Shown here: positions 11,568 through 18,167 of the stretch, in pieces | How positions within the stretch are numbered: position 1 is the stretch's first letter | Layout: each line of letters begins with the position of its first letter | Assembly: GCA_048938025.1 (NCBI GenBank) | Contig: JBHLMP010000035.1 | Coordinates: 1-38,876, forward strand | Length of the DNA: 38,876 bases | DNA from: Promethearchaeota archaeon | GTDB lineage: Archaea > Asgardarchaeota > Lokiarchaeia > Sigyniarchaeales > SOKP01 | Reading direction: 5' to 3' | Notes under the pieces: generated by a model | Seen by the model: the letters and a program-made list of their open reading frames with translations, nothing else | Told to the model about the DNA's origin: nothing | The model's database searches: none | Position numbers and translations under genes: made by a program

Positions 11568-13715
11568 TTAATTTAAACGTTCTATTCGGTCTAAAATACG
11601 TGTATATTTTTTAATCCCATAAACTACAAAAATTACGGAAATTGCTACTATACTTATCATTATAATCAAAGCAATATTTAGCATATAGTTTATTATTGAT
11701 TTAGGAATTTGAAATGTATAAGATTCATTGTAAAAAACATTGGTATTATTAGCATAATCTCGAGCAACGATCATATACGAATAATTACCTGGTTCTAATT
11801 TGTCAATAATAAATTCAAAATTCCTCTCATCTTCTTGAATACTATTCGATAGTCTATAAGATGTAAAATTGTTAAACTGATCCTTAGAAATTAATAAATA
11901 TACACTTTCAATCCCTGATTGATTATCATAAATTTCTATATTGAAACACATCTTATCTGAAACTGAAGGATTTTCTGGAACATACTCTAATCGAGAAAAT
12001 TCAGGTTTATTATCATCTGAAAGCGTAGTAAAGTTAAAGTAAGATGGAATTAAATTGTGCCCTGTAATAGTTACATTGTATGTTTCATTAACTTGTGCCG
12101 GGACACGCAACTTTGCGATACCCTCTTTATTAGCATATGAAGTATAATATTTTCCGTCAGTAGTTCTAAAATGAACTCTCGCATATGGAATTATATTATT
12201 AGAAATGTCTCTAATTTCAATAGAAACTAATTGACCTTCATAAATATTTTGATTAAAGGGATTACCTGCTTTTTTTGGCTTATTAGTGTAGATATCAACC
12301 TCAGGATCCCCTAAAAGACAATAAGTTAATAAATTTTTACGCTCGAAATCATAATAAGTTGCCCCATCTCCTCTTTTATAGTAATCACTATTTATATATG
12401 AAACTTTAGAATCATATAATGCCCTGCCTTGCTGAAACTTTTTTTCTTCAAAAAATTCCTTCCAAAATAACTTGGCATTTCCGCGGTTTAATTTTTCAAA
12501 GTTATAATCATCTTCATAATACCAACTTACTCTAAGTGCTCCAATAAATCCAATTGCACCAGCGCTCAATTGCTTTATTAGAGTTTCTCCAATATTATTA
12601 TCACTATGATCATAACAGGAGGTAGAACAAGCATCTATATAAACTAATGAAGGCATATTAATATTAGAACTTGAACTAGCATCAGCAGACGTATATCCTG
12701 CGGTACTCGGATTACGATAATAAGCTGTTGGGGCTCCATGTCCGGCCATAATGACTGTTGAATAACCATTATTGAACTGATTCCTGAGTTCTATACGTGT
12801 AAGATTTCCTGCTTCTTCTACTAAATGAGTAGAATTCATCTCTAAATTCACATAATTTTGTATAATATAACTTGTTAACCAGCTTTCATATTCTCCATCA
12901 GTTCCATAAACGTGATATTGGGAGATACCTCCTGCTAATAACATTCTATTCATCCAATCATCTAGATAAGGATCCATTTCATATTTTAAAGTCTTATTTA
13001 CCATTATCTCAAGTTCTTCAGCAGTATCAGCAGGAAATCTACCAACATATACCTCTGGAACCCATGAAATTTCATCATACCAATATAAATTATCTTGTGG
13101 AGCTTCCCCCCATCTTGAATCTTCATCACTATTCCAAGTACATAGAAGATCCAAATCACCTGTGAGATCTGCATAATAATAATCTGTAGGTTTGTAATAA
13201 TTATCCATTCCTGAAGCTTCGCTTCCACCATATCTTACAACATCAGGGTTATATACTTCTCTTATAGGAATTAAATCATTTTGAGCATCCCCAGCTAAAA
13301 GAACCCAGCGAATATTTTCTTCATCATAATATGATTTTATCATATTTCGAATCTTTTCGGGGTCATCTCTGCCAGGATAATCCGAAAAATTGCTCAAAAT
13401 TATTGTTTTAACTCCTTTTTCATTTTTCCAATCCGCTAAAGGTTTTAAAGTATCAATAAAATCAGTGTTGTTTGGTGCTATAATTAACATCTCAATTTTT
13501 GGATAATACCAATCATTTTCCAATGATGAATAATCAATTTCAGGTAAAAATGATAAATCAATTTCAGGATTACTGCTATAAAGATTCAGTTCTTCTGAAA
13601 TATAAGAATTATTATAAACAGCAAAGTATTGACTACAACTAAGAAAAATCGATGGAAACAATAAGAATAGAATAATAAATAAATATACAAATTTTTTAGG
13701 AGAAGACCTTAGCAT
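11568..13715 (-). CDS. Peptidase C25 (gingipain family), secreted and C-terminally membrane anchored
   Basis: LADWKNEKG, VLLAGD, PTDYYYADL, VGRFP, catalytic AGHG and DACS, LLGDP; N-terminal signal-like segment and C-terminal TM helix. Confidence 0.9.
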   Translation of the reverse strand: MLRSSPKKFVYLFIILFLLFPSIFLSCSQYFAVYNNSYISEELNLYSSNPEIDLSFLPEIDYSSLENDWYYPKIEMLIIAPNNTDFIDTLKPLADWKNEKGVKTIILSNFSDYPGRDDPEKIRNMIKSYYDEENIRWVLLAGDAQNDLIPIREVYNPDVVRYGGSEASGMDNYYKPTDYYYADLTGDLDLLCTWNSDEDSRWGEAPQDNLYWYDEISWVPEVYVGRFPADTAEELEIMVNKTLKYEMDPYLDDWMNRMLLAGGISQYHVYGTDGEYESWLTSYIIQNYVNLEMNSTHLVEEAGNLTRIELRNQFNNGYSTVIMAGHGAPTAYYRNPSTAGYTSADASSSSNINMPSLVYIDACSTSCYDHSDNNIGETLIKQLSAGAIGFIGALRVSWYYEDDYNFEKLNRGNAKLFWKEFFEEKKFQQGRALYDSKVSYINSDYYKRGDGATYYDFERKNLLTYCLLGDPEVDIYTNKPKKAGNPFNQNIYEGQLVSIEIRDISNNIIPYARVHFRTTDGKYYTSYANKEGIAKLRVPAQVNETYNVTITGHNLIPSYFNFTTLSDDNKPEFSRLEYVPENPSVSDKMCFNIEIYDNQSGIESVYLLISKDQFNNFTSYRLSNSIQEDERNFEFIIDKLEPGNYSYMIVARDYANNTNVFYNESYTFQIPKSIINYMLNIALIIMISIVAISVIFVVYGIKKYTRILDRIERLN

Positions 13716-14045: not shown

Positions 14046-14202
14046 TCCATCTAATAACCAATTATATAATTTATTATTTCAAATTCCTAATCCATTAGAA
14101 GATTTAAAAGAATTTCTCATCAACTTCTTAAAAGGTTTTAATGGTCTATGCTACAATATCTTCCGATTTGGAAACCTAATACTTTTTTTCATTTTTTTAT
14201 TT

Positions 14203-14412
14203 ATGCGACTTAATCTATTAGTTAATGAAAAGTGTATTGAAAATCATGAAAAAATTTATGCTAAAAATATTGAATATGTTAAAACGGAAGGTAAAAAAAG
14301 AAAATGGCAAAACCTATTAAAAGAAAAATCTCTTCCAAAATTAACTAAAGAGTATGGTGTAGGTAGAAATACAATCAAGTGATTATGTGATGAGTGGGAG
14401 GTTGATATCTAA
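14203..14412 (+). pseudogene. Degenerate helix-turn-helix protein fragment with in-frame TGA
   Basis: Hand translation ...KEKSLPKLTKEYGVGRNTIK*LCDEWEVDI*; the HTH-like pattern continues across the TGA at 14380-14382. Confidence 0.45.
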
Positions 14413-14543
14413 TCTAATAAGAAATAGAAAATTAAATTCTATTAGGTTAATTTAATTAGCTTTTTATTTCATCCTAATATGTATTTAAAACATATTATCT
14501 AAAATTCGTAAAAAATATTTATAATTGAGAATGATAAATCATA

Positions 14544-16117
14544 ATGGTTTATAATTTAGAAGATATAAAAGGCATTGGTAATGAAACAGCAGAGAGATTA
14601 AGATCAGCAGGTATTAATTCAATTGAAAAGCTAGCTGAATTATCACCTAAAGAATTATTAGGATTAAAAATAAAAGGTATCGGAAAAGCAACGGCATCTA
14701 AATATATTGAAAATGCTAAAAACTTACTTGAAACCGAAAGTGTAAAAGTAAAAGAAGAACTCCCAAAAGTTGAAATACAAGCTATAGCATCAATTAAAGT
14801 GCCAGCTAAAAAAGGACCTAATCTTAAAGAGCTAATTGCACAACAAGCGGAATGTAATATTGGGCTCGTAGGTCATGTAGATCATGGAATGATTCTGCCA
14901 TTTAGCCAATTCCCATAAAAACTACATTAGTTCAGGCACTTACAGGAGATTGGACAGATAGGCATTCAGAGGAGCAAGAACGTGGTATTTCTATAAAATT
15001 AGGTTATGCGAATGCAACAATTCTTTACTGTCCTACGTGTGACCTATATTTTACAAAATATATGGTTGAACGAGAAAGAGTAAAGGGTCAGCCACGATTC
15101 ACATGTTTAAAATGTAAAGATCAATTAGAGTTTAAAAGAAATATTTCTTTTGTTGATGCACCGGGGCATGAAATATTAATGGCGACTATGTTAAGTGGAG
15201 CTTCTTTGATGAATGGAGCATGTTTATTAATAGCAGCAGATGAAGATTGCCCACAACCCCAAACAAGGGAACACTTAGAGGCCTTAAATATCGCCGGGAT
15301 ACAGAATATTATTATCATTCAAAATAAAATTGACGCTGTTTCAAAAGAACAAGCTTTAGAAAATTATAAACAAATCAAGGAATTTGTTAAAGGAACTATT
15401 GCTGAAAATGCTCCAATCATACCTGTCTCAGCTGTTTTTAACTCTAATATAGATCTTATTGTAAGAGCATTTGAAGAAATAATTCCTTCTCCAGAAACCA
15501 ATGAAAATGAATCATTTCAGTTTTTAATTGCAAGATCATTTGATATTAATCGTCCCGGAAAAGAAATTCAAGATTTAAAAGGAGGAGTAATAGGCGGTTC
15601 TGTATTAAAAGGAAAAGTAAATATTGGGGATCGAATAGAGATACGCCCTGGTATTCACATAAAAAATAATTATATGCCGATACAATCAACTATCGTAAGT
15701 ATAAGTCAAGGGAATAATAATTTTGAGAATGCTAAACCTGGCGGTTTAATAGGATTAGGAACTAAATTGGACCCATCCTTAACTAAAGGAGATCATCTAA
15801 TAGGGCAATTAGTTGGAAAACCAGGAACATTACCGGAAATTCTTACTGAAGTGGAATTGAAAGTTAATCTACTTGAACGTGTAATCGGTACTGAGATGCA
15901 AATCAAAGTTACTGAACTTAAACATAACGAAAAATTGTTATTAGTTATTGGAACCGAAAAAACAGCTGGAACAGTTACTAAAATTTTAAAAAATTCGTTT
16001 ATCCTTAAATTAAATCCTCCTATTTGTATCCCAGAAAATTTTATATTTGTTATATCCAGAATAATAAATAGACGTTATAGATTAATTGGATATGGTGAAA
16101 TCTTTAATCAAAACTAA
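14544..16117 (+). CDS. eif2g: Translation initiation factor aIF2 gamma with N-terminal HhH domain; join(14544..14889,14919..16117), 514 aa
   Basis: NIGLVGHVDHG / KTTLVQALTGDWTDRHSEEQERGISIKLGY, DAPGHE, QPQTREH, NKID, RSFDINRPG and GGLIG motifs; the reading frame is interrupted by a 29-nt insert in the P-loop. Confidence 0.93.
14890..14918 (+). other. Candidate BHB mRNA intron (29 nt) in eif2g
   Basis: Central helix AUGG (14884-87)/CCAU (14913-16), bulges AAU and AAA. Cutting after the second bulge nucleotide gives CAT GGA AAA ACT ACA = H G K T T in frame. Confidence 0.85.
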
Positions 16118-16154
16118 GAGAATATCAATAAATAAAAAAAGATCAACTAATTTA

Positions 16155-16487: not shown

Positions 16488-18167
16488 TTATCGCGATTTT
16501 TTGTTTTTAACATAGACTATTATTCCTATTATTAAAAAAGATCCATTTATTGAACCAAATATCAATATCCAAATAGGAATGTGCATTATATTAGTATAAA
16601 TATAATTGATTTCATTATAAGTACTAACATTAGTCCTAATTATTAAATTTCCATGTTGGTAAACCTCAACCGTATAATTCCCTTTTGGAACATTATTTAA
16701 TGAAACCGCTCCATTTTCATTGGTTTTCAAAGGTGCAATTGGTTGAGTTCGGTTATTGGATATATAAGTTCCATAATTTAAATCATAGTAGTAAATACGC
16801 AATTTTAAGCCCATAATAGGCATCTTAATATTGTCAGTTACTATTATTCTTAACTTATCTACAGCAACATAATTAACACTAAATGGACATGTTTCCCCCA
16901 CTAGCATATATGGCAATTCTACTTTTACCCTTATACCACCATTATCTGTAATATTTTCATCAAAATATGACATTCCCCTTTCAAATAGAGAATTAATACT
17001 TAAGATATTTTCGGATGATGTAGCGGGTTCATATATAGATACATGGCTTAAATAAATATGTCTAGGTCCAGAGATTGGTGATGGAAAATAAATACTTTCC
17101 CGAATATTTCTTAGAGCTACTAGTCTATCAATAGCCCATGTTTTAGAAACGGGATCAATAAACCTTAAGATATAATTAGCAGTGAAATTTAGAAAAAACT
17201 TACTTTCATTTGCAGAAAAGGAATCTGACAAAGTTATATTTATAGATTTATCAAAATTTAGATGATCCTCTATAGCAACGGTTTCGTTATTTATTAAAAG
17301 GCTATGGTTATCTAATAAATCTCTGTCAGGAAGAAAAACAGTCAAGGCAACATCTACATTTTCGCTAGGTATCTTTTGATTAGTGTCTGCTTGAAACATT
17401 TGTCCAGTTAACGTAAATTCATAATTGAATTTAGCTGTAAAGTTCTGTTCTGCCTTTATCATATTTAAATCATCTGGATATTGATTTAGGTTCCAAGGAT
17501 CTATTGTTAAATCATATTCCCAAATAAGGTACATCGTAAAATTGAAAGTAGGGTCCTCATTTTTAAAATAATCCTTATAATCGAAAACTAAGAAATCACG
17601 TCCATCAATATAATAGTCATCGTCCAGACTCAATTCTAAAATATCTGTGCCATTAAAAACATAAAAATCAGTTAAATAACATGGATACAAACGAGGACGA
17701 TAAATTAAAAATCCTTCATTTGGATTATCATACCATACTTTTAGGGTTTCATTTAACTTTACCTTTATTTCATTTCTATCTGATAGATCACTATTTAAAT
17801 TGTCAATTCTAGCAGATTCATTTGTTTCAATAAATTTAATCTCTTTGGAAGTAATATTCAATGCACCTGAATCATAATCATACCACAGAAGGGGGTAACT
17901 AGCATTATAAATATAGTGTCCAATCTCTAGCCCACTAAAAGTCATATCATAGATCGTTATATTTCCCAGTCCATGTTTTTTTTCTTCAATTATAGGGCTA
18001 TAATCCTCTTTAGAGAAATCATTATTTTTTAGATTATCTTGATTATCATAAATATTAGAATTGGTAAAATTGATTGAAAAGAATGGAACTAAAGTACTAA
18101 AAATTAGTAATACAAATAAGAAGAATATTAAATTTTTAACTTTTTTATTCCCTTTATTATTAACCAT
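16488..18167 (-). CDS. Secreted, membrane-anchored surface protein with C-terminal carboxypeptidase-regulatory-like beta-sandwich
   Basis: N-terminal signal/TM segment, many N-x-S/T sequons, TNENG.V.LNNVPKGNYTVEV motif, C-terminal TM helix with basic tail. Confidence 0.7.
   Translation of the reverse strand: MVNNKGNKKVKNLIFFLFVLLIFSTLVPFFSINFTNSNIYDNQDNLKNNDFSKEDYSPIIEEKKHGLGNITIYDMTFSGLEIGHYIYNASYPLLWYDYDSGALNITSKEIKFIETNESARIDNLNSDLSDRNEIKVKLNETLKVWYDNPNEGFLIYRPRLYPCYLTDFYVFNGTDILELSLDDDYYIDGRDFLVFDYKDYFKNEDPTFNFTMYLIWEYDLTIDPWNLNQYPDDLNMIKAEQNFTAKFNYEFTLTGQMFQADTNQKIPSENVDVALTVFLPDRDLLDNHSLLINNETVAIEDHLNFDKSINITLSDSFSANESKFFLNFTANYILRFIDPVSKTWAIDRLVALRNIRESIYFPSPISGPRHIYLSHVSIYEPATSSENILSINSLFERGMSYFDENITDNGGIRVKVELPYMLVGETCPFSVNYVAVDKLRIIVTDNIKMPIMGLKLRIYYYDLNYGTYISNNRTQPIAPLKTNENGAVSLNNVPKGNYTVEVYQHGNLIIRTNVSTYNEINYIYTNIMHIPIWILIFGSINGSFLIIGIIVYVKNKKSR

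Follow-up and report, generated by a model that had tools for sequence, protein, structure and literature searches.

The aIF2-gamma gene of a Lokiarchaeial genome (Promethearchaeota archaeon, here G000), located at positions 14544-16117 (+) of the 38,876-nt contig under analysis (the window), is interrupted within its P-loop codons by a 29-nt insert at 14890-14918. On comparative grounds we read this insert, with a probability of about 0.88, as a bulge-helix-bulge (BHB) intron that is spliced out of the coding region by EndA and RtcB. G000 denotes the window's genome, labels such as G012 and G043 denote the genomes of relatives, and coordinates are those of the window unless stated. The DNA contains the insert, a geometry that matches frame-restoring cuts, covarying base pairs, exons under purifying selection, genes for both enzymes, and similar inserts in four paralogous GTPase genes; from these features we infer cleavage, ligation and translation of the spliced form. 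An earlier annotation made from the letters of the stretch alone (the sequence-only reading) had proposed such an intron in an Asgard host. The intron is supported by the comparative data below, with the site interrupted in 30 of 125 family genomes, covariation and 64 related inserts, and the host agrees with relatives that are named Promethearchaeota or Promethearchaeia and are of the Lokiarchaeia type.

Profile searches bore out the identification of the gene as aIF2-gamma, in that its 3' part matches GTP_EFTU over profile positions 43-188 of 188 (E 2.1e-24) as well as eIF2_C (E 9.1e-22). The upstream frame, an open reading frame (ORF) at 14544..14918 of 124 codons, encodes an HhH domain, a linker and the motif G-H-V-D-H-G (GGT CAT GTA GAT CAT GGA, last nt 14888) before it ends in a TAA at 14916-14918. 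After 29 nt, K-T-T-L-V (AAA ACT ACA TTA GTT) follows in a different frame, which spans 14918 to 16117, so the frame shift and stop codon between the two motifs are as originally described. Orthologues of aIF2-gamma are encoded by a single continuous ORF of ~520 aa; deletion of 14890-14918 fuses both frames into one ORF of 514 codons with an intact GHVDHGKT; exon 1 contributes the first nucleotide of its P-loop Lys codon and exon 2 the other two. Deletion of 14889-14917 or 14888-14916 yields an identical product, owing to the A's on either side. Exon 2 shares 95% amino acid identity with the uninterrupted orthologue of G012. The HhH domain (PF14520) is N-terminal in the protein (window 14544-14720), and the combination of HhH, GTP_EFTU and eIF2_C is common in long proteins from Asgard metagenome-assembled genomes that their sources name IF-2 subunit gamma.

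In the transcript, exon AUGG would pair with intron CCAU to form a 4-bp helix between two 3-nt bulges, with an intron hairpin inside this helix and a weak exon-exon helix outside it (Table 1). The pairings listed in the sequence-only reading (AUGG/CCAU, the AAU and AAA bulges, GA/UC and GUAG/CUAC) are all present. Cuts placed according to the rule established for cbf5, between the second and third bulge residues (PMC2738675, in part), remove 14890..14918 and restore the frame, also as had been claimed. With 14-nt flanks, the unconstrained minimum-energy fold is the BHB structure at -6.4 kcal/mol. Among 200,000 shuffles of the 29 nt, 5.2% reached all four central-helix pairs at the required register and 0.54% added at least two adjacent inner pairs, and a lone case is therefore not decisive.

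Table 1. Features of the interrupted aIF2-gamma gene and of its predicted splice motif (window coordinates).
Feature	Position	Strand	Remarks
Exon 1, aIF2-gamma	14544..14889	+	HHH_5 (PF14520) at residues 5-59, E 8e-12; linker; G1 motif G-H-V-D-H-G; first A of the Lys codon
Putative intron, 29 nt, BHB-type	14890..14918	+	Frame shift and in-frame TAA; same site interrupted in 30/125 family genomes
Exon 2, aIF2-gamma	14919..16117	+	Lys codon nt 2 and 3, remainder of the GTPase domain, domain 2, eIF2-gamma C-terminal domain, stop codon
TAA closing the unspliced frame after 124 codons	14916..14918	+	
Central helix H, 5' strand AUGG (His and Gly codons)	14884..14887	+	Pairs with 14913-14916
Central helix H, 3' strand CCAU (within the intron)	14913..14916	+	
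5' bulge AAU	14888..14890	+	Predicted cut 14889/14890, after the second nt
3' bulge AAA	14917..14919	+	Predicted cut 14918/14919, after the second nt
Inner hairpin h', 22 nt	14891..14912	+	Weak in G000: GAUU/AAUU, or GA/UC plus GC/GC; as many as 9 bp in relatives
Outer helix h, 5' strand UGUAG	14876..14880	+	Pairs with 14922-14926; minimum-energy fold, 57-nt context
Outer helix h, 3' strand CUACA (Thr codons, exon 2)	14922..14926	+	Minimum-energy fold

The sequence-only reading had named, as a check, an alignment across Lokiarchaeia for inserts at the same site with conserved pairing, and a comparison of their aIF2-gamma genes revealed them. The gene is present in 52 of the 54 genomes of the window's own genus, six of these being interrupted at the site, by 29 nt in G000 and G043 and by 30 nt in G001, G003, G062 and G054; the closest relative, G012, is uninterrupted. 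The gene was found in 151 of the 161 genomes of the class. Every interrupted one belongs to the window's family, and the rows of the six other families display no interruption at this site. Sequence inspection verified the insert in 29 genomes from nine genera, always in the same codon phase, with lengths of 29 nt (23 genomes), 30 nt (5) and 32 nt (1). A covariance model added a second, interrupted copy in G122, which brings the count to 30 of the 125 family genomes with the gene. The G122 bin holds an uninterrupted aIF2-gamma (C106:3371-4927) and an intron-bearing one (C165:253-294); this could reflect a genuine polymorphism or duplication, or else two strains in one bin, for which a contamination of 8% is stated. 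Two genomes, G140 and G149, were left unscored for aIF2-gamma as their contigs end at or near the site. The 32-nt case, G101, is present in alignment A1, where MAFFT misaligned it, and was omitted from alignment A2 and from covariance model R1, which hold 28 of the 29 sequences.

A common plan is evident in these inserts: exon AUGG faces intron CCAU, CUAU or ACAU, and each strand leads into a 3-nt bulge; the helix encloses an intron hairpin of at most 9 bp and is flanked on the outside by two exon-exon pairs (C-G and U-A). In A1 (29 sequences), 82.3% of the cells are paired, compared with 69.9% in column shuffles that ignore relatedness (0/500 reach the observed value), and sliding the partner strand gives 32-56%. 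Ten of the 17 pairs change on both sides across the 29 sequences. The central helix is 94% paired and includes one double change from U-A to C-G, while in the inner helix nine of ten pairs change on both sides with 78.6% of cells paired. Next to the bulge, the outer C-G pair is formed in 22/29 sequences (C-A in G000) and the U-A pair in 25/29. The BHB fold is the unconstrained minimum-energy fold of the 57-nt context in 11 of the 29 sequences, G000 included. Support for the motif comes from pair counts on the named structure rather than from single-sequence folding or RNAalifold.

For each of the 30 aIF2-gamma cases, GHVDHG-K-TT is recovered when the cuts are made between bulge residues 2 and 3. 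Among them, six genes (G062, G054, G085, G115, G151 and G096) have introns whose last two nt are AU, AC, AG or UA, not AA, and their DNA contains no contiguous Lys codon; only cuts that follow the BHB rule create one. Because the Lys codon of these six genes arises only by joining, ribosomal bypassing or frameshifting is excluded and joining at the RNA level is favoured. Codon usage at the site also separates intron-bearing from intronless family genes: His is CAT in 28/29 versus 22/50 (Fisher 1.5e-6) and AAG, the Lys codon that forms the outer C-G pair, is used in 22/29 versus 12/50 (Fisher 1.3e-5), both tests overstating the difference as kin share states. The Gly codon of intron-bearing genes is GGA or GGT only.

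The insert is present in independent assemblies. A 1190-nt contig from run X4, which belongs to a different study, spans 14300-14965 with 10 substitutions and no gap, and the probable source run, X1, likewise spans the site gap-free. In the sister genome, G043, the insert recurs with three substitutions, all in the hairpin stretch 14895-14898. A search of G000 (96.7% complete, 88 contigs) for a second aIF2-gamma found none, the next matches being other GTPases at 28-30% identity. Neither of two outcomes named beforehand as contrary to an intron was found, namely DNA reads without the 29 nt (the contigs of both runs contain them) and an intact second copy accompanied by decay of this one. Among intron-bearing pairs, dN/dS was 0.04-0.15 for the 3' exon, with 0.12-0.15 for the G000 gene, and 0.24-0.75 for the 5' exon, which is short and fast; an intronless pair gave 0.12 and 0.41, respectively. 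These values indicate that the gene is under purifying selection on both sides of the insert. Intron-bearing pairs at dS 0.7-2.6 still have both exons open, and the 1.2 kb of exon 2 in G000 contain no further stops or frame shifts.

Model R1, trained on 28 of the aIF2-gamma introns together with 8 and 5 nt of flanking exon, recovered the known site in G000 at 53.2 bits (E 2.3e-7); the next match, at 18.9 bits (E 5), lies within an intact ORF. Across the family (135 genomes) R1 also matched other genes, which were followed up with the intact proteins of G000 as queries and by sequence inspection. In all, we compiled 64 inserts of 29-33 nt with the same geometry in five genes, aIF2-gamma included, from 50 genomes. 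The same Lys-codon phase is occupied in aEF1-alpha (10 genomes), aIF5B (3), EF2_b (1) and EF2_a (4, plus one slid by 1 nt), where EF2_a and EF2_b are the names given here to two aEF2 paralogues. Other inserts follow G-H (EF2_b in three genomes, aEF1-alpha in one) or G-H-I-D (EF2_b in one, aEF1-alpha in one), and the switch-I region of EF2_b has two insert positions 6 nt apart, used in seven and two genomes. Over the 64 inserts the central helix forms four of four pairs in 55 and three of four in nine; in five shifted registers, none of the 64 reaches four of four. Translation without splicing would meet a stop in 62 of the 64 inserts, and 38 shift the frame. Where the His codon is CAC, the intron has a G opposite (aIF2-gamma of G085, aIF5B of G042, and EF2_a of G093 and G095 versus G094 and G096), and on sequence comparison these cases are compensatory exon-intron changes.

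The control genes cbf5 (134 family genomes) and RpoB (131 family genomes) displayed no such insert. A few splits at contig ends or frame overlaps were seen in the controls, as was one TAA in RpoB of G100 (C136). In G000 itself the other GTPases are intact and cbf5 is one open frame of 337 aa; among its GTPases aIF2-gamma alone carries such an insert. Two motif scans of G000 gave no excess over decoys. The first, on BHB geometry and ORF fusion, returned 2264 matches versus 4575 in two decoys, with an inner-helix filter that would reject the window's own intron; the second, on introns of 26-39 nt with a hairpin-energy filter, returned 3107 versus 12562 in four decoys, and 30 versus 22.2 at <= -6 kcal/mol.

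For EF2_b, 25 rows were flagged and inserts were located in 12 full genes that were fetched, plus G094. In G052, G050, G051, G017, G062, G001, G117, G016, G013 and G055 an intact EF2_b P-loop was seen and the insert was not located, and in G149, G042 and G095 the stretch fetched contained no P-loop motif. Candidates in aEF1-alpha of G019, G051 and G004 and in aIF5B of G121 (at a contig end) were rejected; they have stops or short starts with the P-loop intact. Overlapping frame switches unlike the 30-nt inserts occur in aIF5B (G099:C92:23889-25635) and cbf5 (G022:C51:6257-7263), and EF2_a of G134 has a single in-frame TAG with no added length. These interruptions in G099, G022 and G134, and that in G100, could be sequencing errors or something else.

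The genome encodes the enzymes that splicing of this kind would use. G000 has two EndA paralogues of 201 and 200 aa with 30% identity, both containing PF01974 and PF02778, and an RtcB (E 4.5e-170). In contig coordinates the EndA genes lie at C66:88094-88699 and C33:14644-15246. One EndA paralogue seems to be without the catalytic His, judged by the Tyr-His-Lys triad, which would fit an alpha-beta heterotetramer. Asgard archaea are described as having an (alpha-beta)2 EndA with an L1 loop insert that is associated with broad, relaxed-BHB specificity (PMC5829648, in part). The endonuclease acting on the aIF2-gamma transcript would probably be an (alpha-beta)2 heterotetramer of both paralogues, cutting after the second nucleotide of each bulge. 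RtcB would then ligate the exons and rebuild the Lys codon from A and two nucleotides; the resulting mRNA would encode an aIF2-gamma of 514 aa whose GHVDHGKT is intact.

In addition to the relatedness that the column shuffles ignore and the Fisher tests share, several results weigh against this interpretation. The G000 motif is a relaxed BHB, not a canonical one: the inner helix has 2-4 pairs only and contains a mismatch or bulge; at the first outer pair C stands opposite A, and a 5-bp helix forms farther out; and the 3' bulge merges into a 3x5 internal loop, in which AUC 14881-14883 lies opposite AAAAA 14917-14921. RNAfold on 14868-14934 picked a different fold (z-score 0.17), and thermodynamics alone lends the motif weak support. 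RNAalifold alone recovered three hairpin pairs only. In phylogenetically independent pairs (nine on starred branches) the codon preferences keep their direction (His 3.3 vs 0.0, Lys 3.4 vs 0.3) with a median p of 0.25. The sole RNA run (X20, share 0.05) covers 15787-16140, outside the intron site, and no uninterrupted protein with the G000-type 5' exon was found in a collection of 5.8 billion proteins, in which the best long match had 59% identity. A continuous protein of the G000 type, had one existed, could have come from a cDNA or from an intronless allele, and this result speaks for neither side.

Four other explanations were considered for the interrupted gene. EndA could cut the transcript and leave the halves unligated, or inefficiently so, which would down-regulate or split the mRNA and leave the protein to a ligated minority or to two polypeptides. 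The relaxed G000 motif would suit this, as would the unspliced frame, which would yield a 124-aa HhH protein, and EndA is known also to process non-intron BHB sites in rRNA and a 5' untranslated region (UTR) (PMC7714728, in part). However, the cut positions are exactly codon-restoring, a property that selection would not keep if ligation were irrelevant, and the gene is single-copy. We take aIF2-gamma to be essential, and we know of no precedent for two-chain function with the P-loop split between G and K; cutting without effective ligation is therefore rated as quite unlikely. Recoding, in which the ribosome bypasses the 29-33 nt or shifts frame and nothing is spliced, is rated somewhat lower still, as very unlikely. 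Bypass elements such as those of phage T4 gene 60 and the yeast mitochondrial 'byps' do share features with these inserts, which are short and have a hairpin and an early stop after the take-off point. In the window, though, the take-off and landing codons do not match (GGA vs AUA), the DNA of six aIF2-gamma genes and of many other inserts lacks a contiguous Lys codon, and the covarying pairing of exon AUGG with intron CCAU has no role in bypassing.

A pseudogene, in which a random 29-nt insertion killed aIF2-gamma and the BHB likeness arose by chance, would account for the broken frame and the TAA, and the minimal motif does occur in the 0.54% of shuffled inserts given above. Decay is nevertheless highly improbable considering that the genome holds no second copy, that 1.2 kb of sequence at dN/dS 0.12-0.15 contain no additional stop or shift, and that 30 genomes of nine genera hold a same-phase insert with covarying pairs, their exons remaining open at dS 0.7-2.6. 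The most remote explanation is an assembly or binning artefact, that is, a chimeric join or sequence from another strain. G000 is a draft of 88 contigs with 5.1% contamination, and G122 has both interrupted and uninterrupted copies; against this, two runs of separate studies have contigs across the site, G043 has the insert with its three substitutions, and the 64 inserts share one geometry in 50 independently assembled genomes when two control genes from ~130 genomes have none. A spliced BHB intron accommodates these observations best in our assessment.

The distribution of the intron was traced in trees that include every interrupted gene and, outside genus g1, a sample of the uninterrupted genes; the change counts refer to that sample, and G124 is missing from the trees since no protein was extracted. 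On the 3' exon tree (86 rows) the intron state needs 15 changes, at least nine of them forced by well-supported branches, compared with 10 changes and one forced on the 5' exon tree. The latter places the four 30-nt introns of the genus in one clade (98) and G000 and G043 within a clade of intron-bearing genes from another genus (support 82). Where close pairs differ in intron state, their 3' exons are 93-97% identical and their 5' exons only 57-68%, in contrast to ~91% in pairs with the same state. Between G000 and G012, DNA identity rises from ~50-70% upstream to 92-100% from 14950 on, a jump within ~50 nt of the intron, while G000 and G043 are 92-98% identical throughout 14400-14950. The exon identities and the tree change counts therefore point to an intron that moves with a divergent 5' exon allele, and a recombination breakpoint lies at the intron. 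Recombination near the conserved P-loop codons accounts for a large share of the patchy distribution, genus g12 excepted, in which intron state differs with no exon swap.

A broader interpretation is possible, which we put forward tentatively and consider doubtful as a whole. The window's intron may belong to a mobile family of ~30-nt BHB mini-introns that, within one Lokiarchaeial family, has settled in P-loop and switch-I codons of translational GTPase genes, at least five paralogues being affected. It would spread between paralogues via the D-H-G-K codons and between lineages via homologous recombination, in which the 5' exon is exchanged along with its intron. The conserved D-H-G-K codons would supply the exon half of the splice motif, and the route could be reverse splicing with reverse transcription, or ectopic conversion. 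The pattern of this family is observed in the DNA; mobility from paralogue to paralogue is a proposal, as is a regulatory role. In the bolder form of the latter, dependence on EndA and RtcB would couple the synthesis of translation factors to tRNA-splicing capacity.

The closest known parallel is cbf5, whose intron was reportedly treated by Watanabe 2002 and Yoshinari 2006. In Crenarchaeota (Desulfurococcales, Sulfolobales) the cbf5 pre-mRNA has a BHB intron (PMC2738675, in part). Like the intron proposed here, it lies in a coding region and splits the codon of a catalytic residue (Asp in cbf5) after the first letter; it is removed by the tRNA splicing endonuclease with cuts between bulge residues 2 and 3, its BHB is mostly 'unconventional' and needs a hetero-oligomeric EndA, and its distribution is patchy, with gain and loss (PMC2738675). 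The Lokiarchaeial introns differ in gene and phylum (Asgard/Lokiarchaeia), cbf5 being uninterrupted in G000 and the 134 family genomes, and in occupying five paralogous translational GTPase genes at several neighbouring sites. Whereas cbf5 splicing was demonstrated by cDNA, that of the Lokiarchaeial introns is predicted. As of 2020, cbf5 was the only reported BHB intron in an archaeal protein-coding region, according to PMC7714728. The mechanism itself is known from crenarchaeal cbf5, and the newer layer, partly inferred, is a family that involves several paralogues and several sites.

Asgard tRNA genes are very intron-rich (PMC11291895; bioRxiv 10.64898/2026.10.13.758758; both in part). Archaeal tRNA BHB introns resemble the inserts described here in their two 3-nt bulges on a 4-bp helix that is half exon-built, their presumed processing by EndA and RtcB, their small size and their repeated gains at permissive sites; the host, in contrast, is an mRNA coding region, so that codons constrain the exon half of the motif. 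In the parts of their texts available, the two Asgard tRNA-intron papers do not treat mRNAs, the text of the second being without the word 'mRNA' (PMC11291895; bioRxiv 10.64898/2026.10.13.758758). A full-text literature search, which excluded supplements and subscription-only papers, turned up no Asgard protein gene reported to have a BHB intron, and crenarchaeal cbf5 as the sole precedent in a coding region; the supplements of the tRNA-intron papers, outside that search, could contain mRNA cases.

The EndA of Haloferax volcanii is of the homodimeric type. In this euryarchaeon the HVO_1309 mRNA has a 5' UTR BHB intron and was confirmed, both in vivo and in vitro, as a natural substrate of EndA (PMC7714728, in part); that intron is in an untranslated leader, unlike the proposed aIF2-gamma intron, which is within the reading frame. 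A looser comparison can be made with eukaryotic HAC1/XBP1 splicing by IRE1. IRE1 is a different nuclease that recognises twin stem-loops and serves as a stress switch. The two systems would work alike in that a small, frame-changing mRNA intron is removed by a protein endonuclease and an RNA ligase, free of the spliceosome (PMC13149111, in part); the comparison is an analogy only, with no homology implied.

If the intron reading is correct, translation factors that are essential to Lokiarchaeia, a group closely related to the ancestor of eukaryotes, would need pre-mRNA splicing by the tRNA machinery. Gene callers would split or discard such genes, which would affect Asgard marker-gene sets and completeness estimates. 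The 64 inserts would also form a natural series on the origin, inter-paralogue movement and loss of protein-spliced introns, including intron presence and absence tied to a recombination breakpoint, and would provide natural substrates for Asgard EndA.

Two features of the surroundings of the gene may be added. A stretch of ~340 nt upstream (14081-14421), including a 59-codon ORF at 14203-14382, has no counterpart at that place in G012 or G043, and from this comparison may be an insertion specific to G000. Large Asn/Ser/Tyr-rich predicted membrane or secreted proteins are encoded on both sides, at 11568-13715 (-) and 16488-18167 (-).

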